A DNA stretch of 40,121 bases from an uncultured Alphaproteobacteria bacterium (GTDB taxonomy: Bacteria > Pseudomonadota > Alphaproteobacteria > HIMB59 > GCA-002718135): NCBI GenBank assembly GCA_902602135.1, contig CACKQA010000002.1, positions 1 to 40,121 of the forward strand, in the 5' to 3' direction. Shown here one piece after another: positions 19,132 to 37,107 of this stretch. Under the pieces are notes generated by a model. It saw only the letters and a program-made list of their open reading frames with translations. It ran no database searches and had not been told where the DNA came from. The first letter of the stretch is position 1. Each line of letters opens with the position of its first letter. A program made the position numbers and the translations under genes.

Positions 19132-20019
19132 ATGAATAATAATGTAAAAGCTATTATTTTAGCTTTAGTTGCTTCTGTGTCAGGAGTAACAATGAATGTT
19201 CTTATAAAATTTTCGCTTCAAGATATAAATGTATTTACTGCTGGATTTTTAAGATTTCTTTTTGGCTTTATTTTAATTCTTCCTTTTATATTTTATAATA
19301 AATTCCAAAATTACAAGACACCAAATCTAAAAATTCATTTAACAAGAGGTATTTTAAATATACCAATGATGCTACTTGGATTTTCTGCACTTCAATTCAT
19401 ACCTTTAGAACAGATTAAAGCAATTTCCTTTGTTACTCCTATTATTGTAGTAGTTTTAAGTGTAATTTTCTTGAAAGAAAAAATTTATTTAATTCGTATT
19501 GGTGCTTTGCTTATTGGTCTAATTGGAGTCTTTGTTATTTTGAGACCAGGTATAGTGCCAATAAATGTGGGAGCTTATTTAGTTTTGTGCTCTTGTTCTA
19601 TCTGGTCAGTAGTTGTTATTATTACAAAATTTGCTGCAAGGGTTGATAGTGCTTTTACCATTTTATCTTATCAATATACTCTTGTTACCTTTTTATCTTT
19701 TCCTATTGCTTTATATTTTTGGCAATCACCATCATCAGAAACATTAATATATTTAGTCTTTGCAGGAATTGCAGGAACAATTGTTCACCTATGTATAAAT
19801 ACTGCTTATAAATTGACAGATTTATCTGTATTGCAACCAGTCAATTTTTCACGATTATTAATTGCATCTTTATTTGGGTTTTTAATCTTCGATGAAGTGC
19901 CTGATATTTGGACAATGATTGGTGGTTTAATTATATTCTCTTCAATTCTTATCATAACATATAGAGAAAATTATCTTAAAAAGGATATAGCAAAGCAATC
20001 AATACCAGTTAAACTTTAA
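19132..20019 (+). CDS. EamA/DMT-superfamily transporter (paralog 1)
   Basis: Ten-TM profile with two EamA-like halves. It starts 3 nt after the dmdA stop. Confidence 0.8.
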   Translation: MNNNVKAIILALVASVSGVTMNVLIKFSLQDINVFTAGFLRFLFGFILILPFIFYNKFQNYKTPNLKIHLTRGILNIPMMLLGFSALQFIPLEQIKAISFVTPIIVVVLSVIFLKEKIYLIRIGALLIGLIGVFVILRPGIVPINVGAYLVLCSCSIWSVVVIITKFAARVDSAFTILSYQYTLVTFLSFPIALYFWQSPSSETLIYLVFAGIAGTIVHLCINTAYKLTDLSVLQPVNFSRLLIASLFGFLIFDEVPDIWTMIGGLIIFSSILIITYRENYLKKDIAKQSIPVKL

Positions 20020-20025
20020 TTTCAT

Positions 20026-20904
20026 ATGAACAATAATGTCAGAGCAATTTTATTAACTATTTCTGGATCTTTTTTTGCTGTGCTAATGGAAGCTTTAGTT
20101 CGTGCAGCGCAATATGATTCAAATGTTTATACTATTGGCTTCTTGAGATTTTTTTTTGGTTTAGTGATTATTTTTCCCTATTTAATAAAAAATAATTTTA
20201 CTACTTATAAGACAAAGAATTTAAAATTCTACTTATTACGAGGCGCTTGCAATATCCCAGTGATGATTTTAGGTTTTGGTGCTTTAGTTTATGTACCTTT
20301 TGAGCAATTCAAAGCTATGCATTTCTTAAGTCCAATAATTGTAGTTTTACTAAGCTTTATAATTTTTAGAGAGAAAATTTATATGTTTCGTATTCTAGCA
20401 TTAATAGTTGGTTTTGTTGGAATGCTTATTATAGTAAGACCAGGATTTGTAGATTTTAATATTGGAACAATTATGATTCTTGTTTCATTAACTTTTTGGT
20501 CTTTCATAATTATTTTATCAAAATTTGTATCAAAAGATGATTCACCTATAACAATGGTTACATACCAATATACTTTAATGACTATATTTGCTTTACCATT
20601 AGCAATTTATTTTTGGCAAATGCCATCAATAAATTCAATAATTTATGTTTTTTGCGCTGCGATTTCAGGGACAATTTTGCATTTATCACTAAACTTAGCT
20701 TATAAATATGCAGATCTATCTGTTACCCAACCTATATGGTTTAGCGGCTTAATTTTTGGATCCGCATTTGGTTATTTTGCATTTAATGAAAATCCTGATT
20801 TTTGGACATGGATTGGCGGAATTGTCGTCTTTTCTTCTGTTTTATTAATAACTTATAAAGAAAAAGACTCAAAAAAAATGCCAGAAAATAGTAATATAAC
20901 TTAA
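20026..20904 (+). CDS. EamA/DMT-superfamily transporter (paralog 2)
   Basis: Colinear with 19132..20019 and no indels visible by eye (MNNNV[KR]AI.L, GFLRF.FG, YKT.NLK, LSV.QP, ITY[RK]E). Confidence 0.8.
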   Translation: MNNNVRAILLTISGSFFAVLMEALVRAAQYDSNVYTIGFLRFFFGLVIIFPYLIKNNFTTYKTKNLKFYLLRGACNIPVMILGFGALVYVPFEQFKAMHFLSPIIVVLLSFIIFREKIYMFRILALIVGFVGMLIIVRPGFVDFNIGTIMILVSLTFWSFIIILSKFVSKDDSPITMVTYQYTLMTIFALPLAIYFWQMPSINSIIYVFCAAISGTILHLSLNLAYKYADLSVTQPIWFSGLIFGSAFGYFAFNENPDFWTWIGGIVVFSSVLLITYKEKDSKKMPENSNIT

Positions 20905-20985
20905 CTTAATCATAAATATAATTTTGAGAAACTATTGAAATGCACACATTATTTTTGTAGAATTTTCATGTTATTGGGAGGTAAT

Positions 20986-22194
20986 ATGAAATTACTAGTA
21001 AAATTATTTTTAATTTCTTTAACTATTCTTCCATTCGCTAAAACTACTTCTGCAGAAGAATTAATTATTTGGAGTAGAGGTGGATGGTCAGACTGGATGG
21101 TTGAAGGGTTTAATAAAAAAATGGCTGACGAAGGAAAAGATATCGTAGCTATTAACAACCTAATTGGTCATGCTGACTTTCAGGTTAAATTTACAGCTGC
21201 ACTTGCCGCAGGTGAAAGAGTTGATGTTGCAAACATCGACTTAATTAACGTTCCTTATTATGCTGCAATAGGTGCACTAGAAGATATGACTGACTTTTTA
21301 AAGTCACAACCATATTATGATCAATTAAATGGTCCAATGCTTGCTTTAGGATCGTATGATGGAACACACTTTGCTGCACCAAATGCTGCCGATGTGTCTG
21401 GTTATGTTTATAATAAAAAACTTATGCCAAACCCACCAAAAGATTGGGCAGAGATGACAAGTATGTGTGAAGACTTTGCTGCTAGAGGACAACTAATGAT
21501 GGCTTGGCCTTCAAAAAGTTATGGTGGTATGATCTTTACAGGTATGCCAGTTGCTTGGGCAAATGGTGGTTCATGGGTAAGTAAAGATGGTAAAACAGCT
21601 GAGTTAAATCATCCAAAAACAGTTGAATGGTTTAAGCATTACCAAAATTTAATTAACATTGGTTGTGTGCCAGAAAACGTTGATGTTTGGGATTGGCCAG
21701 ATAAACAAGATGGCTTCCTAGCAGGTGATATCGCAATGATTGGTACAGGAAACTTCATGATTAATGTTGTTAAAGATCACACAGAAAAAGTAGATGCTGG
21801 ATTTACAGCATTTATGAGTAGTGACGGTTCAAGTAATTCAGCATTTATCGGAGGTGACTTAATTGCAATCCCAGTTACTACTGGTGCTAAAGAAGCAGCT
21901 CTAGAATACATTGAATATGTGTTATCTGAAGCAGGTCAAATCGAGGTATATACTAAAAATGGTGGTATACCAATTCGAGCAGATCTATTTGAAGGTAATC
22001 CATACCTAACTGATGATCACATGGTATTTGCAAATGCATCTACTGTTGGAGATGTTCCTTATACAACTGTTTATCAGGAGTTAATGGATCCATGGCAAGT
22101 AGCAAATCAACGAATTTTTGCTGGTGAAGATGTGCAGACAGTTCTTGACGAACAAAATGCAATCATGCAAAAAATCATTGATGCTGGTCATTAA
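20986..22194 (+). CDS. CUT1-family sugar ABC transporter periplasmic substrate-binding protein
   Basis: Signal peptide MKLLVKLFLISLTILPFAKTTSA followed by a mature domain with an SBP_bac_1-like pattern. GGAGG lies 6 nt upstream of ATG 20986. The track start at 20935 adds a non-signal extension. Confidence 0.85.
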   Translation: MKLLVKLFLISLTILPFAKTTSAEELIIWSRGGWSDWMVEGFNKKMADEGKDIVAINNLIGHADFQVKFTAALAAGERVDVANIDLINVPYYAAIGALEDMTDFLKSQPYYDQLNGPMLALGSYDGTHFAAPNAADVSGYVYNKKLMPNPPKDWAEMTSMCEDFAARGQLMMAWPSKSYGGMIFTGMPVAWANGGSWVSKDGKTAELNHPKTVEWFKHYQNLINIGCVPENVDVWDWPDKQDGFLAGDIAMIGTGNFMINVVKDHTEKVDAGFTAFMSSDGSSNSAFIGGDLIAIPVTTGAKEAALEYIEYVLSEAGQIEVYTKNGGIPIRADLFEGNPYLTDDHMVFANASTVGDVPYTTVYQELMDPWQVANQRIFAGEDVQTVLDEQNAIMQKIIDAGH

Positions 22195-22220
22195 TAGATA
22201 AAACATTGTAGGCGAAACTT

Positions 22221-23099
22221 ATGAGTAGATTACGAAAAGAACAACTCGTTGGTCTTTTAATGGTTTCGCCTGCATTAATTTTACTTGCAGTTTTCTTTCT
22301 TTATCCTCTTGTAAATTCTTTTTATATGTCATTTCACAAATGGCCACTTTTTGGAAAACCTAAGTGGGTAGGTCTTGATAATTATATTTTTATGTTCCAG
22401 GATGAACGTTTCTGGGAATCTTTGAAATTTACTTTTGTTTACACTTTAACTGTTACACCAATGTTGTTTGTAGTCGCTATTGGAACTGCACTATTATGTA
22501 ACGCAAAAGCTTGGGGAACAACTTTTTTTAGAAGTATCTATTTTTTACCTGTAGTTATGTCTTTTGCCACAGCTAGTTATGTCTGGTTATGGCTTTACAG
22601 TGAAATGTACGGAGTAATAGTTTATGCATTAGAATTTTTTGGTTTTGGTGGAGAAAATAAAAATCTTAATGTTTGGAAAACAGGAACATCTTCAATGTGG
22701 GCTGTAAATGCTATGGTTACATGGAAGTTTTCTGGTATCCAAATGATTATTTTGATAGCTGGATTACAAGCTATAAGAGATGATTATTATGAAGCATCTA
22801 AATTAATGGGGGCTTCACGATGGCAAACAATTTGGAATGTAACACTTCCTCTTTTACGACCTTCAATTGCCCTTGCTTTAATTTTATCCATAGCAGGTTC
22901 AATTCAAGCATATGAACAATTTGTAATTATGACAAGAGGTGGTCCTTCAAACTCTACTAAAACACTTGTTATGCATACTGTTGATATGGGATTTGATTAT
23001 TTCAAATTAGGTCCAGCTGCATCTCTTGGTGTAATTATAATGATAATACTTTTTGTACTTACTGTAATTCAATTACGTTTATTTAGAAAGAATTACTAA
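22221..23099 (+). CDS. Sugar ABC transporter permease, MalF/UgpA type (TMD1)
   Basis: N-terminal LLMVSPALILLAVFFLYPL, then GLDNYIFMFQDERFWESLKFT, and the EAA loop YYEASKLMGASRWQTIWNVTLPLL. Confidence 0.88.
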   Translation: MSRLRKEQLVGLLMVSPALILLAVFFLYPLVNSFYMSFHKWPLFGKPKWVGLDNYIFMFQDERFWESLKFTFVYTLTVTPMLFVVAIGTALLCNAKAWGTTFFRSIYFLPVVMSFATASYVWLWLYSEMYGVIVYALEFFGFGGENKNLNVWKTGTSSMWAVNAMVTWKFSGIQMIILIAGLQAIRDDYYEASKLMGASRWQTIWNVTLPLLRPSIALALILSIAGSIQAYEQFVIMTRGGPSNSTKTLVMHTVDMGFDYFKLGPAASLGVIIMIILFVLTVIQLRLFRKNY

Positions 23100-24026
23100 G
23101 TGAGACGTTACTCATCGGATTGGTACTGGTATTATGCAATTAATTATACTTTAGTTATAATAATTATTTTTCCAATTTATTGGACACTTATTTCTTCATT
23201 TAAAAAACCTAGTGAGCTAATTACTAGTGAGCCTACTTTTTATCCTCATGATTTAACTTTGCAGTATTATGATCAAATTTGGAATTTTGATAGACTCAAA
23301 AGACTTCAAGATACTGAATCAGAAGACTCAGAGTCATCTGGTGTTGAAATTGAGAGCAAATTTAGACTTGATGGTGAAGGAGTCAAAAGACCTTTTATGA
23401 ATAGTGCAATAGTTTCAGCTGGAACAATTATACTAACTATTATCGTTTGTACATTAGGGGGATATGCACTAACCGTTTTAAATACTCCTTTAAAAAATTT
23501 TTTTTTCTTATTAGTAATATTACCAATTTTAATACCAGGTATTTCTCTAATAATACCGCTCTATAAATTATTAAAAGACCTTGGGCTTACTAATACTCAT
23601 TTAGGTTTAATCTTGATACATACTTGTGGAATGTTGCCTTTAGGAATCTTTATGATGAGAAATGCATTTAACAGCATTCCTTCCTCATTAAGAGAGGTAG
23701 CAATGCTTGAAGGATCAAGTGAATTAAAAATTATTACTTCTGTTATGCTACCGTTAGCAATTCCCGGTCTTTTAACAGTGATGGTTTTTGCAATGTATGT
23801 TTCCTGGAATGATTACATATATGCTTTTATATTTATAAATTCACCAGAAAATACAATGTTAAATATTTCATTAATGAAAATTGCATTAGGTGGATCTCAA
23901 TTTGAAATGAAATGGGGAAGTCTAACAGCGGGCTCAATTGTTAGTTTTCTTCCAATAATAATTTTTTATACTTTTCTTCAGCAATATTTTGTTAGAGGAG
24001 TTACAGGAAGCGCAGTAAAAGAATAG
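23100..24026 (+). CDS. Sugar ABC transporter permease, MalG/UgpE type (TMD2 copy 1, 308 aa)
   Basis: GTG start abuts the upstream stop. EAA loop SLREVAMLEGSSELKIITSVMLPLAIPG. It carries an acidic 51-residue loop after TM1. Confidence 0.88.
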   Translation: MRRYSSDWYWYYAINYTLVIIIIFPIYWTLISSFKKPSELITSEPTFYPHDLTLQYYDQIWNFDRLKRLQDTESEDSESSGVEIESKFRLDGEGVKRPFMNSAIVSAGTIILTIIVCTLGGYALTVLNTPLKNFFFLLVILPILIPGISLIIPLYKLLKDLGLTNTHLGLILIHTCGMLPLGIFMMRNAFNSIPSSLREVAMLEGSSELKIITSVMLPLAIPGLLTVMVFAMYVSWNDYIYAFIFINSPENTMLNISLMKIALGGSQFEMKWGSLTAGSIVSFLPIIIFYTFLQQYFVRGVTGSAVKE

Positions 24027-24034
24027 GGGGTTAT

Positions 24035-25090
24035 ATGTATTCTGTAGATTTAAAAAATGTAACAAAAAAATGGGGAGACGTAACTGCTGTAGATCAAGTA
24101 AATCTCCATATTAATGAAGGTGAATTCGTTGTACTTTTAGGTCCATCAGGATGTGGTAAAACAACTACGATGCGTCTTGTTGCTGGATTAGAAGATATAA
24201 CTGATGGTGAGATTAAAATTGGTGACGAAATTGTAAATGATGTTGACCCAAGAAAAAGAGATGTATCAATGGTATTTCAAAATTATAGTCTTTTCCCCCA
24301 CATGACTGTTAGAAATAATATTGCTTATCCTCTAAAAATGAAAAAAATTCCAAGTTCAGAACATGATAAACTTATTAAAGAAGTTTCTTCACTTGTTGAA
24401 TTGCAAGATTTATTACACCGTAAACCAGCCGAACTATCAGGTGGTCAAAGACAACGTGTTGCTTTAGCAAGAGCAATAGTGCGTCAACCACGTGTCTTTT
24501 TAATGGATGAACCTCTTTCAAATCTTGATGCTATATTAAGAGTTACAACGAGAGCAGAATTAAAAAATCTTCATCACCGACTTGGTGTAACGACAATATA
24601 TGTAACTCATGATCAAGTAGAAGCGATGACACTTGCAAATAGAATTGCTGTTATGAACCACGGTAAACTTTTGCAGTTTGATAAACCACAGGTAATATTC
24701 GATGATCCATCTTCTAAATTTGTTGCTGGCTTTATTGGCTCACCTGCAATGAATTTAATTGATGGTCGTGTAGAAAACAAAAAATTTATTTCTGATAGTC
24801 TAACAACATCTTTTGATATTGATTATGAAGGTGATATTACTCTTGGAGTTAGACCTGATAAAATTCAAATAGTCAGTGATACTGATACAAATAATGGATC
24901 TGCTAAAGTTTATTCTGTTGAATTAACGGGGGAGGCAAATCTTGTTACATTTAAATCAAATAATCAAAATCTAATTGTCAAAACAGATAAAAATACACAG
25001 TATGATATTGATTCTGTTTTAAAATTAAACTTCAATAAGGAAGACTGTTACTTTTTTGATATTAATAGTGAAGAAAGGTTAAGAATATGA
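24035..25090 (+). CDS. Sugar ABC transporter ATP-binding protein (MalK/UgpC/MsmX type)
   Basis: Walker A GPSGCGKTT, Q-loop VFQNYSLFPHMTV, signature LSGGQRQRVALARA, Walker B VFLMDEPLSNLD and H-loop YVTHDQ, plus a C-terminal regulatory (TOBE-like) domain. Confidence 0.92.
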   Translation: MYSVDLKNVTKKWGDVTAVDQVNLHINEGEFVVLLGPSGCGKTTTMRLVAGLEDITDGEIKIGDEIVNDVDPRKRDVSMVFQNYSLFPHMTVRNNIAYPLKMKKIPSSEHDKLIKEVSSLVELQDLLHRKPAELSGGQRQRVALARAIVRQPRVFLMDEPLSNLDAILRVTTRAELKNLHHRLGVTTIYVTHDQVEAMTLANRIAVMNHGKLLQFDKPQVIFDDPSSKFVAGFIGSPAMNLIDGRVENKKFISDSLTTSFDIDYEGDITLGVRPDKIQIVSDTDTNNGSAKVYSVELTGEANLVTFKSNNQNLIVKTDKNTQYDIDSVLKLNFNKEDCYFFDINSEERLRI

Positions 25091-27033
25091 ATATCATAGA
25101 TACAAAAATAAATGGCGGTTTTTGGAAAAAAAGAAAAGAATTAAATAAAAATACTTCATTATTTGCAGTTATGAAATCCTTTGAAGATACTGGAAGAATT
25201 AAAGCAATGACTGGTGATAATGATCCTGTGAAACAAAGACCACACATTTTTTGGGAATCAGATTTAGCTAAATTAATGGAAGGTGCTTTTTTCTCCATGC
25301 AACAAGAAAAAGATGAAGATTTAGAAAAAAAAATGGATTCTATAATTGATAAAATTATCGCTAACCAGGAAGAGGATGGATATTTAAATTATTTTTTTTC
25401 ACGACATGAACCAGATAATAAATTTACTAATTTAAGAGATAGGCATGAATTATATTGTGCTGGCCATTTGCTTGAGTCTGCAATTGAGCATCACAAAGCA
25501 ACAGGTAATTCTAAATTTTTTGATGCAATGGAAAGATATGTAGATCATATAATTACTAAATTTGGAAGAGAAGAGGGTAAGATGAGGGGCTACCCAGGTC
25601 ATCAAGAAATAGAACTTGCTCTCGTTAAGGCATACGAACACACAAATGATAAAAAATTTCTCGATTTAGCGACTTATTTTATCGATGAACGTGGTACCCA
25701 CGATAAACCCGAAGATCATTATTATGTAAAAGAAAAAAAGAAATTAATGGAAAAAGAGGGTGAAATTGATTTTTCATTGTTGCCATCAGCAATGAGAGAT
25801 TTTGCAGCTTTCGATCAAGATTTCATGGGTAAAACTTTTAGAGATCTCCATTATTGGCAGGCTCATGAAAGACCTGTTGATCAAAAAACAGCAGAAGGAC
25901 ATTCAGTAAGAGCACTTTATATGTTTACGGCTATGGCTGATTTAGCAAGATTAAATAACGATAGTAAATTGTTAAATGCATGTAAGACTCTATGGAGAAA
26001 CATCGTTGACAAGAGAATGTATGTTCATAGCGGAGTTGGTAGTGCACACATTGGAGAAAGATTTACATATGATTACGATTTACCCAATGACATGGCATAT
26101 GCTGAAACATGTGCAACTATAGCTCTTATTTATTTTGCTAACAGAATGTCAAAGTTGGAATTGAACAGTGAGTACGGTGATATTATTGAAAATAGTTTAT
26201 ATAATCTGCTTTTAGCAAGTACTTCTTTAGATGGTGAAGGCTTCTTTTATGATAATTATTTAGAGTGTGTTCCTGGATATCTACATTCACAGGGTAGACG
26301 TCATGGTGTTAGAGATAGATATCATATGTGTTCCTGCTGTCCACCAAATATAACTCGCCTGTTTGCAAGTATGGATATGTATATATATAATTTATATCAA
26401 GATTCATTAATTGTTGATCAATATATTTCTTCTGAAATTGATTTAATGAATAAGACTCAAGGTATAAAATTAAATCAAACTAGTGATTTTCCTCATAATG
26501 GATATTCTAAAATTGAAGTAATAGAATCAAAAAATAACGAAACTACAATTTATTTTAGAATTCCTTCATGGGATAAAAATATGAAGATTAAACTTAATGG
26601 ATCAGAAATTGATTATGAAGTTGAAAATGGTTATGCCAAAATTAACAAAAACTGGCAAAAAGGAGATGTAATTGATTTATCTTTTGATTTTTCACCAAGA
26701 TATGTTCGAACCAATCCAAATGTTAGATACAACGTAAGAAGAGCATGCTTATTTAGAGGTCCACTTCTTTATTGTTTAGAAGAAAAAGATAATGGCAAAG
26801 ATCTTAATAAATTAATTTTAAATACAAATAATAATTTTGATGAAAAAGATGAAAAAATAAGTTCAGAAAATATTATTTCTTTAACAGCAAATGGATTTAA
26901 ATTTAAAGATTCTAAAGATCTATATCTAAAGGATAAACCAGACATAACGGAAACATCGCTTAAATTTATTCCATATTATTGCTGGTCTAATAGAGGTGAA
27001 AATGAAATGTTAGTCTGGGTTAATGAAAATTAA
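25087..27033 (+). CDS. Glycoside hydrolase family 127 (DUF1680; beta-L-arabinofuranosidase family), cytoplasmic
   Basis: HELYCAGHLLES and GYPGHQEIELALVKAY are present, together with the zinc/catalytic Cys contexts YAETCATIAL and MCSCCPPNI known from HypBA1-type enzymes. No signal peptide. The start overlaps the ATPase stop (ATGA). Confidence 0.87.
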   Translation: MNIIDTKINGGFWKKRKELNKNTSLFAVMKSFEDTGRIKAMTGDNDPVKQRPHIFWESDLAKLMEGAFFSMQQEKDEDLEKKMDSIIDKIIANQEEDGYLNYFFSRHEPDNKFTNLRDRHELYCAGHLLESAIEHHKATGNSKFFDAMERYVDHIITKFGREEGKMRGYPGHQEIELALVKAYEHTNDKKFLDLATYFIDERGTHDKPEDHYYVKEKKKLMEKEGEIDFSLLPSAMRDFAAFDQDFMGKTFRDLHYWQAHERPVDQKTAEGHSVRALYMFTAMADLARLNNDSKLLNACKTLWRNIVDKRMYVHSGVGSAHIGERFTYDYDLPNDMAYAETCATIALIYFANRMSKLELNSEYGDIIENSLYNLLLASTSLDGEGFFYDNYLECVPGYLHSQGRRHGVRDRYHMCSCCPPNITRLFASMDMYIYNLYQDSLIVDQYISSEIDLMNKTQGIKLNQTSDFPHNGYSKIEVIESKNNETTIYFRIPSWDKNMKIKLNGSEIDYEVENGYAKINKNWQKGDVIDLSFDFSPRYVRTNPNVRYNVRRACLFRGPLLYCLEEKDNGKDLNKLILNTNNNFDEKDEKISSENIISLTANGFKFKDSKDLYLKDKPDITETSLKFIPYYCWSNRGENEMLVWVNEN

Positions 27034-27051
27034 TTTATTTTAATTACATTT

Positions 27052-27909
27052 ATGAAAAAATACAAATCAGATTGGTATTTATATTATCTTATAAATGTTA
27101 CTTTAATAATTATTGTTTCTTTTCCTATTTATTGGGCATTTGTTTCTTCAATAAAACCACCCAATGAACTAATAACAAGTACCCCAACATTCTTTCCAAT
27201 AAATCCAACATTTGAAAGTTATGAAAGAATTTGGAACTTAAAACCTACTAGCTCTATGGGTAATGTAAGATCTGCATTTACAAATAGTGCAATTGTATCA
27301 ATTGGAACTGTAGTACTGTCATCAATTGTTTCTACCTTAGCTGCATATGCTCTTACTATTTTAAGAACTCCATTTAGATATTTTATTTTTTTACTTATAA
27401 TTATGCCAATTTTAATACCTGGAATTTCACTCTTAATACCTCTTTATAAATTAGTAAAAGAGCTTGGACTGATGAACTCATATTTAGGCTTAATCCTAAT
27501 ACACTCCACAGGTATGCTGACATTAGGAGTTTTTTTAATGAGAAATGCTTTTATGAGTATACCAACATCTTTACGTGAAGTAGCTTTGTTAGAAGGTTCT
27601 AGTGAGCTACGTATTATGTTTACTGTGATGTTGCCATTAGCGATACCAGGTCTTTTAACACTCATGGTTTTTGCTCTTTATGGTTCATGGAATGATTTTA
27701 TTTTAGCTTTTCTCTTTGTAAATACTATTGATATGGAAATGTTAAATGTCTTCCTAATGAAATTAACATTCGCAGGATCTCAATTTGATACTTTTTGGGG
27801 GCTTTTAAATGCTGGAGCAATAATAAGTTTTGTACCAATTATAATTTTCTATATTTTTCTTCAACAATACTTTGTTAGAGGAGTGACTGGAAGTGCCGTA
27901 AAAGAATAA
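27052..27909 (+). CDS. Sugar ABC transporter permease, MalG/UgpE type (TMD2 copy 2, 285 aa)
   Basis: Colinear with 23100..24026 (SDWY.YY.IN, FPIYW, ELITS.PTF.P, SLREVALLEGSSEL, C-terminal YFVRGVTGSAVKE). Confidence 0.86.
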   Translation: MKKYKSDWYLYYLINVTLIIIVSFPIYWAFVSSIKPPNELITSTPTFFPINPTFESYERIWNLKPTSSMGNVRSAFTNSAIVSIGTVVLSSIVSTLAAYALTILRTPFRYFIFLLIIMPILIPGISLLIPLYKLVKELGLMNSYLGLILIHSTGMLTLGVFLMRNAFMSIPTSLREVALLEGSSELRIMFTVMLPLAIPGLLTLMVFALYGSWNDFILAFLFVNTIDMEMLNVFLMKLTFAGSQFDTFWGLLNAGAIISFVPIIIFYIFLQQYFVRGVTGSAVKE

Positions 27910-27910
27910 C

Positions 27911-28807
27911 ATGAAAAGGTATTCATCTGATTGGTATTGGTATTATGTTATTAACTATGCCTTGGTAGTTATAATATTATTCCCTATTTATTGGACTTTT
28001 ATTTCTTCTGTTAAGGTTCCGGATGAATTAATTACAAGTAACCCAACTTTCTATCCTCATAATTGGACATGGGAGTACTATGACACAACATGGAACTTCG
28101 ATGATGAAATGAGGACTAAGTTACAAAAAAAAATATCTGGAAGTACAACAATAACAGCAGGTATTGAAAGAGCCTTTTTTAATAGTGGAATAGTCACTAT
28201 AGGAACTATTGTTCTATCTTTAATTGTTTCAACACTAGCTGGTTATTCTTTAACTTTTTTTAGGATACCATTTAAAGAAGCAATTTTTATTGCATTAATT
28301 TTACCTATATTAATTCCTGCAGTTTCATTAATTATACCTATCTATAAATTATTAAAATCTCTTGGCTTAACGGATACTCATATTGGATTAATATTTTTAC
28401 ATGCAACAGGTATGTTACCTATTGGTGTTTTTATGATGAGAAATGCTTTCAGTAGTATTCCTTCATCATTAAGAGAAGTAGCTTTGTTAGAGGGAACTTC
28501 AGAACTAAGAATTATGACTACAATAATGATACCTCTTGCAGTACCAGGACTATTAACAGTAATGGTTTTTGCCTTATATATTTCTTGGAATGATTACATC
28601 TTAGCTTTCATTTATATAAATAGTCCTGAAAATATTATGCTAAATACTACACTTGCAAAAATAGCACTTGGAGGAGCTAAATTTGAAATGAAATGGGGAA
28701 ATCTAACAGCAGGTTCAATTATAAGTTTTATACCAATTATTATTATTTACTCAATTTTGCAAAGATACTTTATTAGAGGTATTACAGGAAGTGCCGTTAA
28801 AGAATAA
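27911..28807 (+). CDS. Sugar ABC transporter permease, MalG/UgpE type (TMD2 copy 3, 298 aa)
   Basis: This is the closest copy to 23100..24026 (MKRYSSDWYWYYVINY, SPENIMLN, KFEMKWGNLTAGSI, RGITGSAVKE). It starts 1 nt after the upstream stop. Confidence 0.86.
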   Translation: MKRYSSDWYWYYVINYALVVIILFPIYWTFISSVKVPDELITSNPTFYPHNWTWEYYDTTWNFDDEMRTKLQKKISGSTTITAGIERAFFNSGIVTIGTIVLSLIVSTLAGYSLTFFRIPFKEAIFIALILPILIPAVSLIIPIYKLLKSLGLTDTHIGLIFLHATGMLPIGVFMMRNAFSSIPSSLREVALLEGTSELRIMTTIMIPLAVPGLLTVMVFALYISWNDYILAFIYINSPENIMLNTTLAKIALGGAKFEMKWGNLTAGSIISFIPIIIIYSILQRYFIRGITGSAVKE

Positions 28808-28812
28808 AAGCA

Positions 28813-29631
28813 ATGTCTTTTATTTATAGAGACAAGTTTTGGTACTACACGATTAATATTGTTTTATGTATTTTAATATTATTTCCTATTCTAATAATAT
28901 TAATTCTTTCTTTTAAAACTACAACTGAAATTAGATTTGATAATTTTTTTAATCAATTTACTTTGAAAAATTATTTTTCTATTTGGGATTTAGAAATAAG
29001 AACTAATAAAAATACTTTCAAACAATCACTATTAAATAGTTTAGTTGTAACAAGTGGAACGGTCGTATTATCACTAATTATAAATATTTTAGCTGGGTAT
29101 GCAGTTTCATTACTAACAATACCTTATAAAAATTTTATATTTATTTTATTAATTTTACCTTTCTTAATTCCAGTTTACTCAATTATTATTCCTTTATATA
29201 TTTTACTCTATAAACTTAATTTAAATGATAGTTATCTAGGCTTAATTATAATTTATACTATTTACGTTATGCCAATTGGATTTTTTTTAATGTTTAATTC
29301 TTTTAATAGTATCCCAAAATCTCTACGGGAAGTAGCAATTTTAAATGATAGTTCAGAAATACAAATTCTTTTTTCAATTATGCTTCCATTAGCTATCCCT
29401 GGTTTAATTACTTTAATCATATTTGCTATCTATATTTCTTGGACAGATTATTTACTTGCATTTATCATTATGAACTCTGCTGATATGCAAATGATAAATG
29501 TCACTCTATCTAAAATTGGGTTTAGGTCAATTTATCCATATGCCGGATATGTAATTTCTTACTTACCTCTCATGATTATTTTCATTTTGCTTCAAAAATT
29601 CTATTTTAAGAGTATAATTTCATCATCTTAA
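28813..29631 (+). CDS. Sugar ABC transporter permease, MalG/UgpE type (TMD2 copy 4, 272 aa, most divergent)
   Basis: Same six-TM architecture and an EAA-like loop SLREVAILNDSSEIQILFSIMLPLAIPG. The N-terminus, last loop and C-terminus have diverged. The ORF is intact. Confidence 0.75.
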   Translation: MSFIYRDKFWYYTINIVLCILILFPILIILILSFKTTTEIRFDNFFNQFTLKNYFSIWDLEIRTNKNTFKQSLLNSLVVTSGTVVLSLIINILAGYAVSLLTIPYKNFIFILLILPFLIPVYSIIIPLYILLYKLNLNDSYLGLIIIYTIYVMPIGFFLMFNSFNSIPKSLREVAILNDSSEIQILFSIMLPLAIPGLITLIIFAIYISWTDYLLAFIIMNSADMQMINVTLSKIGFRSIYPYAGYVISYLPLMIIFILLQKFYFKSIISSS

Positions 29632-29634
29632 AAT

Positions 29635-30669
29635 ATGAAAAATGAATTTATGAATGTGCCGATCTTTACTGGAGATGGTAAAGTACAGTTTGAAGAAAGA
29701 AAAATTCCAACGCCAGGAGATAATCAACTCTTAATTCAGGCAAAAGCAAATTTATTGTGTGGTTCTGATAGAAATCAATTTTACAATGGAAGTCCTCAAT
29801 GTATTCCAGGACATGAAGGAGCCGGTGTAATTGTAGATAAAGGAAAAAATGCCAAATTTGAAATCGGTATGAAAGGTGCTGTATACTTATATGATTATTG
29901 CCATAAATGTCGAAGTTGCCAATTAGGGTTAACTAATCAATGTTTACATAAAAACTGTGATTATGGTTTTAATGTTGATGGTGCTTTTTGTGAATATTAT
30001 CTTGTAAATGATTATGTTTTTTTTCCAGTCGATGAAAGTGTTGATGTGATCAATGCGACGTTGCTTTTAGATGTAATGGGGACAGGTGGCCATGCTACCA
30101 AAAGAGCACAGTTAGTTCATAAAGATATTCAATCAGTGCTAATAAATGGCGCAGGACCTATCGGTCTCGGACTTTTAGCAATGAGTAAATTAACTTTTGC
30201 AAAAAATTTACCCGTTATGATTAATGATGTTAAATCATCTAGATTACCATTAGCAGAAAAGATGGGTGGCTTACCTATAGATTTATCGAAACAATCTTTA
30301 GAAGAGGGTATGGAGCAACACGGAATTAAAAATCCTGATGTTGCTATTGATGCAACAGGTAAAACAGTAGCTAGGAAAAATGCTCTTCAAGCTTTAGCTA
30401 AAAGGGGTGTGTTAGTTATGGTTGGTAATGGTGAAGGTTTGGAATTTGAACAATATCCAGATATGGGTGGTCCAGAAAGAAGCATTCTTGGTAGTGAGTA
30501 TTTTTCTTATAATGAAATGGAGGCAAATCATGAATTACTTAAAAATAATCAAGAATATTTATCTCAAATAATTACACATCAGTATAACATTGAAGATGTC
30601 CAAAAATCATATGAACATTTTTTCTCTCCTGAATCTGATGCAGGTAAAATAGCTGTTGTTCATAACTAA
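29635..30669 (+). CDS. Zinc-dependent medium-chain alcohol/polyol dehydrogenase (MDR family)
   Basis: Catalytic zinc ligands in LCGSD and GHEGAG, structural zinc cluster CHKCRSCQLGLTNQC, and NAD fold GAGPIGLG. Confidence 0.85.
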   Translation: MKNEFMNVPIFTGDGKVQFEERKIPTPGDNQLLIQAKANLLCGSDRNQFYNGSPQCIPGHEGAGVIVDKGKNAKFEIGMKGAVYLYDYCHKCRSCQLGLTNQCLHKNCDYGFNVDGAFCEYYLVNDYVFFPVDESVDVINATLLLDVMGTGGHATKRAQLVHKDIQSVLINGAGPIGLGLLAMSKLTFAKNLPVMINDVKSSRLPLAEKMGGLPIDLSKQSLEEGMEQHGIKNPDVAIDATGKTVARKNALQALAKRGVLVMVGNGEGLEFEQYPDMGGPERSILGSEYFSYNEMEANHELLKNNQEYLSQIITHQYNIEDVQKSYEHFFSPESDAGKIAVVHN

Positions 30670-30672
30670 TTT

Positions 30673-31653
30673 ATGAAAAAAATAAAAGTTGCACTTATTG
30701 GAACAGGTAATTGGTGTTTACAACATTGTCGTATTCTTTCACAAAGCCCTCAAGTTGAATTCTGTGGCATTTTAGGAAGAAATAAAGAAAGAACAAAAAA
30801 AAGAGCCAAACTTTATGATGTTCCATATTATATTGATTTTAACGAACTAATAAAAAATCAAAAACCTGATTTAATAAATATAAGTCTTCCGAATGAACAT
30901 CATTACGACATGACAATGAAAGTGATTAAATCTAATACTTCTTTATTTGTTGAGAAGCCTCTTGTTTTTAAAATGAGTGAAGCAAATAAACTTTTATCTG
31001 AAGCTAAGAAAAGAAATCTCTTTTTTGGAATTAATTTTAATTGGCATTATTCTACTCCAGTAAAAAAAGCGATTAAAGCAATTAAAAATAATCAGTTAGG
31101 AGAAATTAATTTTATTACATGGAGATTTGGTGGTGGTGGAGGTGGAAAAAATTTAGATCCTAACGGGAACTTAATTGAAACTCAATGCCATGGATTTGAT
31201 ATGCTTGAATATTTAAATGGACCAATAAAATCAGTTCATTCATTTATGACAGATAAAACAAAAAAAGGTTTTAGTACGATGGTTGTATCAATGAATTTCA
31301 AAAACAAATCAATTGGAAGCTTGCTTGGATCATATGACACATCTTATCAATATCCTAATTCTCATTATGTAGAAATAAATGGGTCGAAGGGAAGAATTTT
31401 AATAGAGGATCAGGTGCAAAAATATACATTTAACAAGAAAGATAGTGAAACCGCTGAAGTGTGGAAAGCAGGATTTTTTAATGATTACGAAAGAGAGTTT
31501 TTGCGAACGTTTGATGAGCATTATAAAGAAGTAATTAATAATTTCATAAAAGGGAAGAGCCCTCCAATACATGCTAAGGCTGGAAAACGAGCTTTAGAAC
31601 TTGCACTTGCATCAATTAAATCTTTTAAGTTAAAAAAAGTTATAAATATTTAG
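30673..31653 (+). CDS. Gfo/Idh/MocA family NAD(P)-dependent sugar oxidoreductase
   Basis: N-terminal Rossmann IKVALIGTGNW, the EKP motif (FVEKPL), and a C-terminal alpha/beta dimerisation domain. Confidence 0.82.
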   Translation: MKKIKVALIGTGNWCLQHCRILSQSPQVEFCGILGRNKERTKKRAKLYDVPYYIDFNELIKNQKPDLINISLPNEHHYDMTMKVIKSNTSLFVEKPLVFKMSEANKLLSEAKKRNLFFGINFNWHYSTPVKKAIKAIKNNQLGEINFITWRFGGGGGGKNLDPNGNLIETQCHGFDMLEYLNGPIKSVHSFMTDKTKKGFSTMVVSMNFKNKSIGSLLGSYDTSYQYPNSHYVEINGSKGRILIEDQVQKYTFNKKDSETAEVWKAGFFNDYEREFLRTFDEHYKEVINNFIKGKSPPIHAKAGKRALELALASIKSFKLKKVINI

Positions 31654-32450
31654 CGCTGATAAACAATTTTGTTCATCGGATGATCTGCTATTTCTCCTGC
31701 TTTTTTTCCACCAAGAAATAATTCAGCATCTCCTTTTCTATCTTTTGTATCAAGTTTACCTACACGAGATCCATCAGCATAATATGTTACAACCATTGCT
31801 TCACGTATTTTGTCTGATTTATTTAATCCAGCTCCATGAATAGTCCATCCAAAGTGAAAAGTGCAATCACCAGCATCTATTGAGTCTAATTCAACAACTT
31901 CCAAATTTTTTTCTTCAATTATCTTATCATAATGATCTTCTGATTTTTCATTTATTGATATACCCATTAAATCACCCATTGTATGAGAATTTTTTACAAA
32001 TCGCATAATTCCCATATCTTTATTACAATCGATTAATGGCATCCATAATCCAATATGAAGATTTGTATCAAGTGGCCAAAAAAATTGATCCTGATGCCAG
32101 TATGATTTTGTATCTCCGGGGTGTTTAAAAATTGCTTGTTCATGAAATATTCGAACAGCATTAACCTTCATTAGATCAGCAGCAATTTTTCCCAAACGTT
32201 TTGATAAACAAAATTTTTCAACACCTTTAGAGTCATAGCGGATATTAAGTGCTTGATAAAATGCACCACCAAATTCTTTATCTTTATCTTTATTTCTTTC
32301 TTCTGCTACTTTTTTTATTTCATCTCTATAAGAAGAAATTTCACTCTTTGATAAAACATTTTTTAACACTACAAAGCCATTTTGCCAAAAAAAATCAATT
32401 TTTTCTTCATCTAAGTTATAATAATTATCAATATTAGGTAAATTATTCAT
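31650..32450 (-). CDS. Phytanoyl-CoA dioxygenase (PhyH) family Fe(II)/2-oxoglutarate oxygenase (second paralog)
   Basis: HxD in WHQDQFFWPL and distal His in WTIHGAGLN. Same length class and N-terminal NGF.VLK pattern as 8754..9548. Confidence 0.75.
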   Translation of the reverse strand: MNNLPNIDNYYNLDEEKIDFFWQNGFVVLKNVLSKSEISSYRDEIKKVAEERNKDKDKEFGGAFYQALNIRYDSKGVEKFCLSKRLGKIAADLMKVNAVRIFHEQAIFKHPGDTKSYWHQDQFFWPLDTNLHIGLWMPLIDCNKDMGIMRFVKNSHTMGDLMGISINEKSEDHYDKIIEEKNLEVVELDSIDAGDCTFHFGWTIHGAGLNKSDKIREAMVVTYYADGSRVGKLDTKDRKGDAELFLGGKKAGEIADHPMNKIVYQR

Positions 32451-32453
32451 ATC

Positions 32454-32475
32454 TATTCAAATTTATATTTGAATA
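32454..32475. promoter_or_regulatory. Candidate operator: perfect 9-bp inverted repeat with a 4-nt spacer
   Basis: TATTCAAAT-TTAT-ATTTGAATA sits in the 86-nt divergent spacer between the PhyH gene and the GH51 gene. Confidence 0.3.
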
Positions 32476-32536
32476 ATTATTGTAATTAAATCTTTTTTAA
32501 TTATGATTTTTTAATTCTTGTTAATATAAATTTTTT

Positions 32537-34084
32537 ATGAAAGTTAAAATTGTTCTCCATAAAGACTATAAAATTAGTCACATTGATAAAAGAATATATA
32601 GTTCATTTCTAGAACATCTTGGAAGAGCAATATATGAAGGTATTTACGAACCTGATCATTCTGAGGCAGATGAAAATGGATTTAGAAAAGATGTAATGAA
32701 ATTAGTTTCTGAATTAAATATGCCTGCAGTTAGGTACCCTGGTGGTAATTTTGTTTCAGCTTTTAATTGGGAAGATTCCATTGGCTTAAAAGAAGACAGG
32801 CCAACAAGATTAGACTTAGCTTGGAAAAGTAAAGAGACTAACGAATTTGGTTTAAATGAATTTATCACATGGTGTAAAAAAGTTAACACAGAGCCTATTT
32901 ATGCTATTAATCTTGGAACCAGAGGTATTGATGCGGCAAGAAATATCATAGAATATTGCAACCATCCAAGTGGCTCTTATTGGAGTGAATTACGCATAAA
33001 ACATGGATTTAAAGACCCTCATAATATTAAAATGTGGTGCTTGGGTAATGAAATGGATGGTGAATGGCAGGTTGGTCATAAAACAGCTTATGAATACGGA
33101 AGACTTGCCAATGAAACTGCAAAAGCTATGCGTTTATTTGATAAAAATATTGAATTGGTTGTTTGTGGAAGTTCGTCAGATACAATGAAAACATTTCCAG
33201 AATGGGAAAGAGAAGTATTAGATTTAACTTATGACTCCGTAGATTATATTTCTATGCATAAATATTGGAGTAATTCTGAAGATAGATCCGATGAAAGAGA
33301 AATTGGCAAACATAATACAACTAATTATTTAACTAATAGTATTGGTCTTCAAACATACATATCTGATGTTGAAAGTACTATAAATTTTATAAAGTCAAAA
33401 AAAAGATCAAAAAAAAATATTAAAATTAGTTTTGATGAATATCAGCCTTGGTATCATAGTATTAAAAAAATGAATACACATTTAAATTCAGATATTAAAG
33501 ATTGGCCCAAAGCATACCCAATTTTAGAAGATGAATATAATCTGTTAGACTGTTTACTTATTGGAACTGTGATCAATACTTTTATAAATAACTCACATAT
33601 CGTTAAAATTGCCTGTATGGCTCAACTTGTTAATGTTATACCAGCAATTTCTACAGTAAAAAATGGAATTAGTTGGAGGCAATCAGTATATTATCCACTT
33701 TATTTCGCATCTTTATACGGAAGAGGGGAGTCGCTTCAACTTAAAATTAATTCACCTAAGTATTCAAGTGATATAGCTGATGATGTTAACTATGTAGATG
33801 CATCTGCTGTAGTAAATGAAGAAAAAAAAACATTATCTTTTTTTATTATTAATAGATCAGAAGAAGAAAATGTAGATTTAGATTTTGATATAAATAACTT
33901 ACCAATTATTAAAATAATTGATCAGCAAATAATTAATCATACAAGTATATATGCATCAAACACTATTAACAAACCAAACGAAATTGTTCCAAAAAAAACT
34001 AATATAGTAACTTTTCAAAATGAAAATTTAATGGCTAAAATACCTAAATTGTCATACCTATTTATTCTCTTAAAAATAAAATAA
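32537..34084 (+). CDS. abfA: Glycoside hydrolase family 51 alpha-L-arabinofuranosidase, cytoplasmic
   Basis: Long AbfA-type strings: FLEHLGRAIYEGIYEP, VRYPGGNFVSAFNWEDSIG, ETNEFGLNEF, LGTRGIDAARNIIEYCNHPSGSYWSELR, the acid/base context WCLGNEMDGEWQVGHKTA, and the nucleophile context ISFDEYQPWY. No signal peptide. Confidence 0.9.
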   Translation: MKVKIVLHKDYKISHIDKRIYSSFLEHLGRAIYEGIYEPDHSEADENGFRKDVMKLVSELNMPAVRYPGGNFVSAFNWEDSIGLKEDRPTRLDLAWKSKETNEFGLNEFITWCKKVNTEPIYAINLGTRGIDAARNIIEYCNHPSGSYWSELRIKHGFKDPHNIKMWCLGNEMDGEWQVGHKTAYEYGRLANETAKAMRLFDKNIELVVCGSSSDTMKTFPEWEREVLDLTYDSVDYISMHKYWSNSEDRSDEREIGKHNTTNYLTNSIGLQTYISDVESTINFIKSKKRSKKNIKISFDEYQPWYHSIKKMNTHLNSDIKDWPKAYPILEDEYNLLDCLLIGTVINTFINNSHIVKIACMAQLVNVIPAISTVKNGISWRQSVYYPLYFASLYGRGESLQLKINSPKYSSDIADDVNYVDASAVVNEEKKTLSFFIINRSEEENVDLDFDINNLPIIKIIDQQIINHTSIYASNTINKPNEIVPKKTNIVTFQNENLMAKIPKLSYLFILLKIK

Positions 34085-34101: not shown

Positions 34102-34923
34102 TTATTTTGTTCCTAAGGCAAAACCTCTTAGTAAATATTTTTGAAAGTATACTAAAAGAAAAATAGTTGGAACAGTAGAAATAATAATTCCTGCTAAGGA
34201 TGTACCCATATACATACTCAATCTATTTCCTAACTGAAGAGACATACCAACCTGAAGTGTTCTCATGTGCTGTTCTGAGGCAGATACAAGAGGCCATACA
34301 TAATCATTCCAAGCTCCACCAAAATTCACTATAGCTACTGTAAAAATCGCAGGTAGTGCTAGTGGCAGCATTATTCTAATAAAAATTTGCAAACGATTAG
34401 CTCCATCAATAACAGAAGCTTCCTCTACTTCTTTTGGAACACCCTTAAAATATTGTGTCATAATAAAAACACCAAATGGTATTCCAAGCTTTGGAAGAAA
34501 TAAACCCGTATGTGTGTTATTTAGTCCTAAAGAACTAAACTGCGTAAAGAGAGGGATAAATAATAATTCACCGGGTATCATTAATCCAGCAAGAACAAGT
34601 GGATATATAAATTTACGACCAAAAAAATCAATTCTTGCAAATGCGTACCCTGCCATTGAGCAAAATACAGTAGTGAAAAAAGTTGCACATAACGCAACTA
34701 TTAAACTGTTCGTAACCCATACATCAAAACTTGAACTCCACATTTTAATATAATTTTCGACAGTAAAAGGAATGGGAAAAAATCCAAATAAGAAATTTGT
34801 AGTTGTTTTTTGTAATAATTCATTCGGTTGAAAAGATAAAGAGATTACCCATACAACTGGGGTAAACCATATTAGACATGCTATTAAAATTACAAAAAAA
34901 TTGAGAGTTAATCTTTTACTCAT
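34102..34923 (-). CDS. Sugar ABC transporter permease, MalG/UgpE type (second system)
   Basis: Six-TM profile with EAA loop EVEEASVIDGANRLQIFIRIMLPLALP. It overlaps the upstream permease gene by 8 nt. Confidence 0.88.
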   Translation of the reverse strand: MSKRLTLNFFVILIACLIWFTPVVWVISLSFQPNELLQKTTTNFLFGFFPIPFTVENYIKMWSSSFDVWVTNSLIVALCATFFTTVFCSMAGYAFARIDFFGRKFIYPLVLAGLMIPGELLFIPLFTQFSSLGLNNTHTGLFLPKLGIPFGVFIMTQYFKGVPKEVEEASVIDGANRLQIFIRIMLPLALPAIFTVAIVNFGGAWNDYVWPLVSASEQHMRTLQVGMSLQLGNRLSMYMGTSLAGIIISTVPTIFLLVYFQKYLLRGFALGTK

Positions 34924-36999: not shown

Positions 37000-37077
37000 T
37001 TTCTAATAAAATTTGTTGGTAAAAATTAATAATTTACTTGAAATATTATTAAATTCAATGCAAATTAACTAAACAAA

Positions 37078-37093
37078 TACTAAATGTTTAGTA
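37078..37093. promoter_or_regulatory. Candidate LacI-family operator (16-bp near-palindrome)
   Basis: TACTAAA-TG-TTTAGTA has 7-bp perfect arms. It lies in the lacI/SBP divergent spacer, 15 nt upstream of the SBP start. Its architecture resembles 16-bp LacI/PurR-type boxes (nnnnAAACGTTTnnnn) with the central CG degraded to TG. Confidence 0.35.
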
Positions 37094-37107
37094 AATATGG
37101 AGGAAAA

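Follow-up and report, generated by a model that had tools for sequence, protein, structure and literature searches.

The stretch of DNA analysed here (the window) is 40,121 nucleotides long and represents contig CACKQA010000002.1 of assembly GCA_902602135.1, from an uncultured alphaproteobacterium that is a SAR11 (Pelagibacteraceae) member in this analysis; its GC content is 25-35%. At positions 20986-31653 it carries a block of genes for a CUT1-type carbohydrate importer of the ATP-binding cassette (ABC) class, in which one binding protein, one MalF-type membrane subunit and one MalK-type ATPase are accompanied by four MalG-type membrane subunits, referred to as G1 to G4. A canonical CUT1 operon encodes one membrane subunit of each type; here, one MalF-type gene stands against four MalG-type genes. 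As argued below, it can be stated firmly that SAR11 multiplied the MalG-type gene of an importer linked to a glycoside hydrolase of family GH127 and kept the copies for a long time.

All genes of the block are on the forward strand. The first encodes the periplasmic solute-binding protein SBP1 (20986..22194; PF13416/PF01547), which has a signal-peptide-like N-terminus and most likely starts at the ATG at 20986, although the open reading frame (ORF) lister began at a TTG at 20935. It is followed by MalF1 (22221..23099; PF00528), the operon's only MalF/UgpA-type membrane subunit, and by G1 (308 aa, 23100..24026), whose GTG start codon abuts the MalF1 stop codon. Next are the sole MalK-type ATPase of the window (24035..25090; ABC_tran, OB_MalK and TOBE_2 domains) and the GH127 glycoside hydrolase, predicted to be cytoplasmic (25087..27033; PF07944, PF20736 and PF20737). 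The latter separates G1 from a head-to-tail array of G2 (285 aa, 27052..27909), G3 (298 aa, 27911..28807) and G4 (272 aa, 28813..29631). The same tightly packed string continues with a Zn-dependent alcohol dehydrogenase (ADH, 29635-30669) and ends with a GFO/IDH/MocA oxidoreductase (GFO, 30673-31653), both recognized by Pfam. The spacers measure 0 nt (MalF1/G1), 18 nt (GH127/G2), 1 nt (G2/G3), 5 nt (G3/G4) and 3 nt (G4/ADH). The initial annotation of this DNA had reported the same counts and coordinates for the four kinds of importer gene as well as the 1- and 5-nt spacers within the array; the ORF list and Pfam agree with the former, and the ORF list reproduces the latter. The tight spacing suggests that the operon may be transcribed as a single unit. 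A scan of 20500-32600 for promoters and terminators gave counts not above those in shuffled sequence and is uninformative on internal regulation.

G1 to G4 all exceed the gathering threshold of PF00528 (BPD_transp_1), with 48-63 bits. When solved structures were searched with G1, its best homologues were all MalG-type chains (SugB, 6e-29; AlgM2, 9e-21; MalG, 1e-13), and the other three proteins were placed through their identity to G1, which is 65% for G2, 68% for G3 and 46% for G4.

A hydropathy scan gave six hydrophobic segments in each of the four proteins, with the EAA coupling motif (SLREVA..EG) between segments 4 and 5 and a variable stretch between segments 1 and 2. Because this stretch is on the opposite face from the EAA loop, which must meet the ATPase, it is taken to be the periplasmic loop P1. 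The alignment of SugB to G1 agrees with this assignment, as its two parts (query residues 10-64 and 96-307) flank the insert. Three lines of evidence thus underlie the topology (how G1 aligns with SugB, the hydropathy scan, and the parity of the segments relative to the EAA loop), and it places the variable segment in the periplasm, as had been expected from the sequence. In G1, the loop comprises residues 50-100 (23247..23399, forward strand) and includes an acidic insert, DTESEDSESSGVEIES. Loop lengths of 51, 41 and 28 residues had been reported for copies 1 to 3; these values are correct but their order is not, since in gene order the loops measure 51, 28 and 41 residues. The differences in length among these three proteins are wholly due to this segment following the first transmembrane helix (TM1), exactly as had been claimed.

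The description of this segment as nearly unrelated between copies also holds, the variable part of P1 (P1b) being 9-25% identical among G1-G3. Elsewhere the same three proteins are far more alike: identity is 82-100% for the C-terminal tail, which reads VRGVTGSAVKE or IRGITGSAVKE, 76-83% for the EAA loop and 55-85% for the TM helices. The strings said to be shared by copies 1 to 3 (SDWY and others) are indeed present, and G4 is without most of them, including the tail. A second site of difference is P3, the scoop loop between TM5 and TM6, which has its full length in G1-G3 and a divergent sequence in G2 (46% identity to G1 and 35% to G3, versus 77% between G1 and G3). G2 therefore combines a short P1 with a divergent P3, and G3 is the best conserved of the four copies.

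In the maltose importer, P1 and P3 of MalG dock the binding protein MalE, P3 being the scoop loop, and deletion of the MalG scoop loop abolishes transport while ATPase activity stays (PMC6906923). In the same way, P1 and P3 of SugB touch LpqY, TM1 of SugB crosses onto the TM2-TM6 bundle of its partner, and SugB's stretch at the C-terminus enters the ATPase dimer (PMC7608808). These documented contacts of P1 and P3 support the earlier placement of P1 on the face that meets the binding protein (PMC6906923, PMC7608808). It is a firm conclusion that the copies are specialised mainly at this surface. The P1 loops are moreover kept among orthologs, paralog by paralog: the loop of G3 is identical in 11 of 12 genomes, with a ratio of non-synonymous to synonymous substitution rates (dN/dS) of 0.014 for the loop, and the corresponding ortholog values are 0.11 for the G1 loop and about 0.10 for the G2 loop.

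The copies are not young. Synonymous divergence (dS) between paralogs is 1.1-1.8, that is, saturated; third codon positions are about 50% identical, and no run of identical nucleotides exceeds 21 nt. Since dS is saturated and long shared runs are missing, the duplications must be old, and selection accounts for the protein strings common to the copies, not recency and not gene conversion, which the short runs and the third-position identity rule out. Among orthologs, dN/dS calculated by the method of Nei and Gojobori (NG86) is 0.038 for G1, 0.052 for G2, 0.022 for G3 and 0.147 for G4, compared with 0.012 for MalF1 (the minimum of the block), 0.023 for SBP1, 0.027 for the ATPase and 0.079 for GH127. 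All four MalG copies are under purifying selection, which settles a check proposed in the initial annotation, namely whether the copies evolve neutrally.

Related genes were surveyed at the level of loci, and the sampled contigs or loci carrying them are designated by L-numbers (L001, L002 and so on). A protein search with GH127 retrieved 11 species-representative genomes, all of them Pelagibacteraceae or “uncultured Alphaproteobacteria” single-cell genomes. The order SBP-F-G1-K-GH127-G2-G3 is kept in all 11; G4 comes next in 10, the contig of L010 stopping after G3; and ADH and GFO then follow in 8, with different genes in L002 and the end of the contig within ADH in L011. All ORFs are intact in these genomes and their lengths are nearly always equal. 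The exact MalF1 sequence occurs in 789 blocks of a public collection, and the array was found in each of 10 further contigs. With an intact array in about 25 independent SAR11 contigs, its conservation in related genomes and metagenomes, which had been named as a check, is clear. As the same arrangement with intact ORFs of equal length recurs in 11 genomes and many metagenome contigs, it is neither chance nor artefact. Apparent pseudogenes in L013 and L035 were attributed to sequencing error instead of decay, as these are long-read assemblies with frameshifts across nearly all genes.

More diverged SAR11 lineages retain the arrangement to varying extents. One, with a G1 of 300 aa (82% identical), has the same G2-G3-G4 array. 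In a still more diverged, SAR11-like group with a GC content of 0.27-0.32, L020 and L023 carry G1 (314 aa), G3 and G4 without G2, and L020 has a second G4-type gene; in L021, L027, L028 and L030 of this group, the order is SBP-F-G(308/316)-K-GH127-ADH-G(316/317/320)-G(278)-GFO. G2 is thus limited to some SAR11 lineages, being missing in these last two sets of loci, and a G3-like gene is present in every lineage sampled. In each of these lineages, a single MalF-type gene is accompanied by three or more MalG-type genes (1:3 to 1:4). Wherever the contig reaches downstream of GH127, a full-length G is found there together with a G4-type gene (298 + 272 or 316/317/320 + 278 aa); they are direct neighbours in all cases but L014, in which the G4 gene has changed its place and orientation. 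Among the loci traced, which correspond to 7 of the 19 database matches with at least 64% identity, G4-type genes occur only in this operon. ADH and GFO are syntenic in most SAR11 loci, one lineage having ADH ahead of the extra G genes.

Several observations concern recombination at this operon. L002 (8974-17191) shows a breakpoint between G3, 98% identical to that of the window, and G4, 72% identical; in place of ADH and GFO it carries two fatty-acid-desaturase-like genes, an SBP-MalF-MalG set (59/75/65% identity), a PanB-like gene and an SBP1 paralog. In L031 (3070-7184), an SBP-MalF-MalG set of a type that we call x is joined to an ATPase 92% identical to that of the window, suggesting that SAR11 genomes exchange the operon's front half among themselves as a module. 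In L001-L011, GH127 falls into two allele classes (94-99% versus 87-89% identity) while the flanking transporter genes are 98-100% identical, and for the window compared with L001-L011, the transporter genes have a dS of 0.35-0.43 versus 0.89 for GH127. Such a pattern resembles that of a recombination mosaic inside the operon.

The nearest operons outside SAR11 were found in two metagenome-assembled genomes (MAGs), one with a GC content of 0.45 and the other, from Hyphomicrobiales, with a GC content of 0.60 (contigs L025 and L026). They have the order SBP-F-G-K-GH127 with a single G of 285-286 aa and a short P1, so that MalF and MalG are 1:1. Behind GH127, L026 (10600-11420) carries remains of an unrelated MalK C-terminus and a 138-aa MalG-type (PF00528) fragment; a different transporter, from an unrelated family, has decayed at this site.

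An alternative raised at the outset was that the copies are recent and redundant without differentiation, or else decaying remnants of complete operons. Complete related SBP-F-G sets do exist in SAR11 (L002, L031 and L032), so duplication of whole sets occurs, and one non-SAR11 MAG has the decayed transporter remnant after GH127 just described. Recency is contradicted by the saturated paralog dS and the lack of conversion tracts, and decay by the four ORFs, which are intact with the same lengths in every good assembly at dN/dS values of 0.02-0.15. Nor does any debris of a MalF, SBP or ATPase gene adjoin G2-G4 in any lineage; copies 2 to 4 have no such partner genes of their own in the sampled SAR11 loci, the nearest non-SAR11 operons are single-MalG, and the remnant in L026 derives from a transporter of another, unrelated family. 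We therefore regard this explanation as very improbable.

No MalF-type gene was found beside G2-G4 in any locus examined in this locus-level survey. The extra MalG proteins might still form a pair with a MalF encoded elsewhere, and the window itself offers a candidate, since it contains a second CUT1 set (34102-38352). This set consists of G5, a fifth MalG-type gene (273 aa, 34102-34923, reverse strand) that is unrelated to the array and about 30% identical to G1-G4; MalF2, a second MalF-type gene (360 aa, 34916-35998, reverse strand); a LacI regulator beside it (35998-36999, reverse strand); and the binding protein SBP2 (422 aa, 37084-38352, forward strand). It is without an ATPase gene and presumably depends on the MalK-type ATPase at 24035-25090, or else on one whose gene lies elsewhere; the window as a whole has one MalK-type ATPase versus two MalF-type and five MalG-type genes.

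Other candidates are the relatives of MalF1. In the database, these fall into classes of 100%, 81%, 75%, 65-66%, 63%, 58% and lower identity, and the one member examined in each class from 100% to 58% lies in its own SBP-F-G set. The 75% class corresponds to the x-type (also present in L002), the 63% class to what we call the y-type and the 65-66% class to the outgroups. Some SAR11 genomes thus have added SBP-F-G sets with a MalF 75% or 63% identical to MalF1, and the survey covered loci rather than whole genomes, both of which leave room for a partner elsewhere. However, MalF2 lies next to a G of its own, G5, and shares no more than about 28% identity with MalF1; a G also belongs to each of the x- and y-type sets, which are missing from most array loci; and G2-G4 always travel with the MalF1 operon. 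We consider it unlikely that the additional MalG proteins find their MalF in this way. An orphan SBP gene after the PanB-like gene in L016 and L002 was also tried as a client of the extra MalG proteins; this was weakened by L032, where a y-type SBP is followed by its own MalF and MalG.

G4 differs in kind from the other copies. A 7-residue deletion in the P3 scoop loop is common to the G4-type proteins without exception, and they carry Ile, Leu or Met at a TM1 position where G1-G3, x-type G proteins, outgroup G proteins, G5, G6 and SugB share a tryptophan; in our alignments this residue is part of a motif P..W.....S.K at the periplasmic end of TM1, which in G1-G3 reads FPIYWT.ISS.K. G4 of the window has FKSIISSS instead of the VRGxTGSAVKE tail, and most G4-type proteins are likewise tail-less, the most basal one (278 aa) keeping a tail, IRGITTSAVKE. 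At the glycine position of the EAA motif, Asp was found in 16 (including the window), Asn in 1 and Gly in 14 in a comparison of 32 G4-type genes, and Asp is present in nearly all of the closest relatives of the window. Identity between G4 and G1 is 32-50% in TM1, TM2 and TM6 and 52-69% in TM3-TM5 and the EAA loop. In a bootstrapped neighbour-joining tree, the G proteins of the outgroup group together with G1, G3 and x-type G (74%), G2 falls outside (85%), and the G4 clade is basal (90-100%). Judging from these sequences, G4 appears to be a separate, older clade and not just another variant. G2 and G4 either predate the split from other orders or evolved faster after duplication.

One possibility is that the extra copies have been kept for a purpose other than the transport of a distinct substrate. 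By titrating MalF1 or the ATPase they might act as regulators or buffers of the core, or G4 might be a non-transporting subunit. Its scoop loop is shortened, and deletion of this loop in MalG kills transport and spares the ATPase (PMC6906923); its dN/dS is the highest of the copies, and the EAA glycine has become Asp in the window's sublineage. But G2 and G3 retain all transport-related motifs under strong constraint, and their loops are conserved in a paralog-specific manner. We have come across no PF00528 subunit that acts in this way, and a streamlined genome would pay a high price for one. This possibility seems to us to have little probability.

A second possibility is that the operon encodes two translocons, one formed by MalF1 and G1, the other by G3 (or, here, G2) with G4 in the role of MalF, both served by one ATPase and probably by SBP1. 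A full MalG and a G4-type protein are encoded side by side in every covered lineage except L014, G2 being an optional extra, and the basal count is four membrane subunits, or two pairs. The features shared by G4-type proteins (the P3 deletion, the loss of the TM1 tryptophan and, mostly, of the tail) can be understood in these terms: a G3-G4 pair would hold one scoop loop and one tail, like canonical translocons (PMC7608808), and G4 is most diverged in TM1, TM2 and TM6. On the other hand, no CUT1 translocon of two MalG-type subunits was found in the literature searched, and a new G-G interface would be required, whereas a duplicate pairing with MalF1 needs none. The N-terminus plus TM1 of G3 is 79% identical to that of G1, yet the two would have to pack on very different partners. 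In L002, a G3 98% identical to that of the window stands beside a G4 only 72% identical, so the two are not tightly co-inherited. We regard two translocons as a rather unlikely arrangement, although one that deserves to be taken seriously.

The explanation that we tentatively put first, as possible, is that G1, G2, G3 and perhaps G4 are alternative MalG subunits on a shared core. According to this proposal, which is drawn from comparative sequence data, the operon would be a SAR11-specific elaboration of a canonical oligosaccharide importer of the CUT1 family (MalEFGK2/LpqY-SugABC-type) together with a cytoplasmic GH127 enzyme. After the split from relatives with one MalF and one MalG, the MalG-type gene would have been duplicated several times within the operon and the copies retained. 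One MalF1 and a dimer of the MalK-type ATPase would form the common core, which would assemble with G1, G2 or G3, possibly also G4, as its second membrane subunit. G1-G3 retain what a place in this core takes (TM helices, EAA coupling loop and a C-terminal tail of the kind inserted into the ATPase dimer), and they differ in P1 and P3, the loops that touch the binding protein and expel its ligand. Isoforms of the importer might then differ in the SBP, or the liganded state of SBP1, that they accept, or in what passes through them.

A shared core needs no new interface and is the natural state right after duplication, which favours it, and it agrees with how nearly identical G1-G3 are in TM1, in the TM helices, in the EAA loop and in the tail. 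The pattern of constraint is also relevant. MalF1 is 95-96% identical in SAR11 lineages in which G1 is 72-82% identical, whereas no subunit of the outgroup pair is better conserved than G (74% versus 70% for F). The notion that MalF1 is unusually constrained as a hub could only partly be used, as F also exceeds K in the outgroup pair; what sets SAR11 apart is the fall of G from first to last place in conservation among the subunits. This reversal between F and G fits a fixed hub with variable modules.

A number of points weigh against this proposal: four G proteins from genes that look co-transcribed would be in competition for a single F, and no switch between them is apparent; the operon has a single binding protein, so the purpose of differing docking loops is puzzling; the loss of three MalG hallmarks by G4 is not explained by a shared core; the AlphaFold2 model of G1 (from an alignment of 34 sequences) had a mean predicted local distance difference test score of 57 and a predicted template modelling score of 0.52 and was not used; and a MalF partner might, though this is unlikely, be encoded elsewhere than in the sampled loci. 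Furthermore, the occurrence of a full G and a G4-type gene in every lineage whose contig reaches downstream of GH127, and a basal state of four membrane-subunit genes, fit two translocons at least as well. With the two genes side by side downstream of GH127, two translocons are as tenable as four isoforms. The idea of a modular importer proposed in the initial annotation has thus gained from the selection, the age, the periplasmic loops and the lack of own partner sets, but not as far as G4 is concerned, since it belongs to an older clade and has lost hallmarks of MalG. Taking the two modular versions together, we think it probable that this is a modular type I importer, either with MalG subunits exchanging on one core or with a MalF-less translocon of two MalG paralogs.

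No bacterial clade of the surface ocean is more abundant than SAR11, whose genomes are streamlined. There are strong grounds for thinking that the extra subunits matter, because such genomes should shed unused genes and yet three extra copies have been kept in many genomes under strong purifying selection. If either modular version is true, it would represent a new assembly rule for the family, fixed in SAR11. All CUT1 systems compared use one fixed pair of membrane subunits, an expectation of 1:1 that is broken here. Known routes to a wider substrate range are extra binding proteins and shared ATPases; exchange of MalG subunits, or a pore of two such subunits, would be a third route to diversify uptake, and transporter counts from annotation would then misjudge the number of SAR11 substrates. 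The database names of these genes are just “carbohydrate ABC transporter permease”. An array of this kind in so abundant an organism would surprise transporter specialists, the assembly of its subunits being what we infer.

The surroundings of the operon may bear on its substrate. Within 25087-27033 and 29635-34084, GH127 and a GH51 enzyme (alpha-L-arabinofuranosidase-like) are found alongside ADH, the GFO/IDH/MocA oxidoreductase and a PhyH-type dioxygenase. This island for oligosaccharide use, of which we met no report for SAR11, couples the operon to GH127 and GH51 and may be a clue to a particular class of dissolved oligosaccharides on which the clade draws. The window has two genes for PhyH-family dioxygenases (8754-9548 and 31650-32450), and a tandem pair of EamA-family transporter paralogs (19132-20904) lies directly upstream of the operon.

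A search of the literature on multi-permease importers, orphan or extra permeases, SAR11 sugar transporters and SAR11 GH127 did not find such an array or alternative MalG subunits. The canonical CUT1 importers, MalEFGK2 of E. coli and LpqY-SugABC of Mycobacterium, consist of the same parts, that is, an SBP, a MalF, a MalG and a MalK with a regulatory domain; here, unlike in those systems, there are four MalG-type subunits per MalF-type subunit, P1 is paralog-specific, and G4 is without part of the scoop loop and the tail. The operons of L025 and L026 are orthologous to the SAR11 operon at 54-74% identity and have the same order up to GH127, but their only MalG has a short P1, and an array of G genes downstream is missing. 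A functional analogue is BauABC with HypBA1 (GH127) of Bifidobacterium, where an oligosaccharide is imported and then cleaved in the cytoplasm (PMC5928203). In the multitask ATPases MsmK, MsiK and MsmX, one MalK-type ATPase likewise serves more than one membrane pair (PMC7658222), as would be the case here. In those systems, complete MalF/MalG pairs share the ATPase, whereas here there are a single MalF and several MalG proteins within one operon.

For alternative membrane subunits that compete for one energizing core, the precedent is provided by the group II energy-coupling factor (ECF) transporters, in which EcfAA'T is combined with exchangeable S-components (PMC7755397). The likeness is conceptual only, since fold and mechanism are unrelated, no binding protein takes part there, and the S-component topples. 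The SAR11 system is not itself an ECF transporter, as its membrane subunits belong to PF00528 and a periplasmic binding protein is present. No type I importer with modularity of the ECF kind was met in the literature searched. The genes of ECF S-components are scattered in the genome. One translocon may also be served by several binding proteins, as in HisJ and ArgT with HisQMP2; there, it is the soluble receptor that has been multiplied, whereas here it is the membrane subunit that docks the receptor. What the two would have in common is a gain in substrate range for one ABC core through the exchange of a cheap peripheral part. Compared with all of these systems, the parts of the SAR11 operon are those of an ordinary CUT1 importer, and it is their stoichiometry that is unusual.

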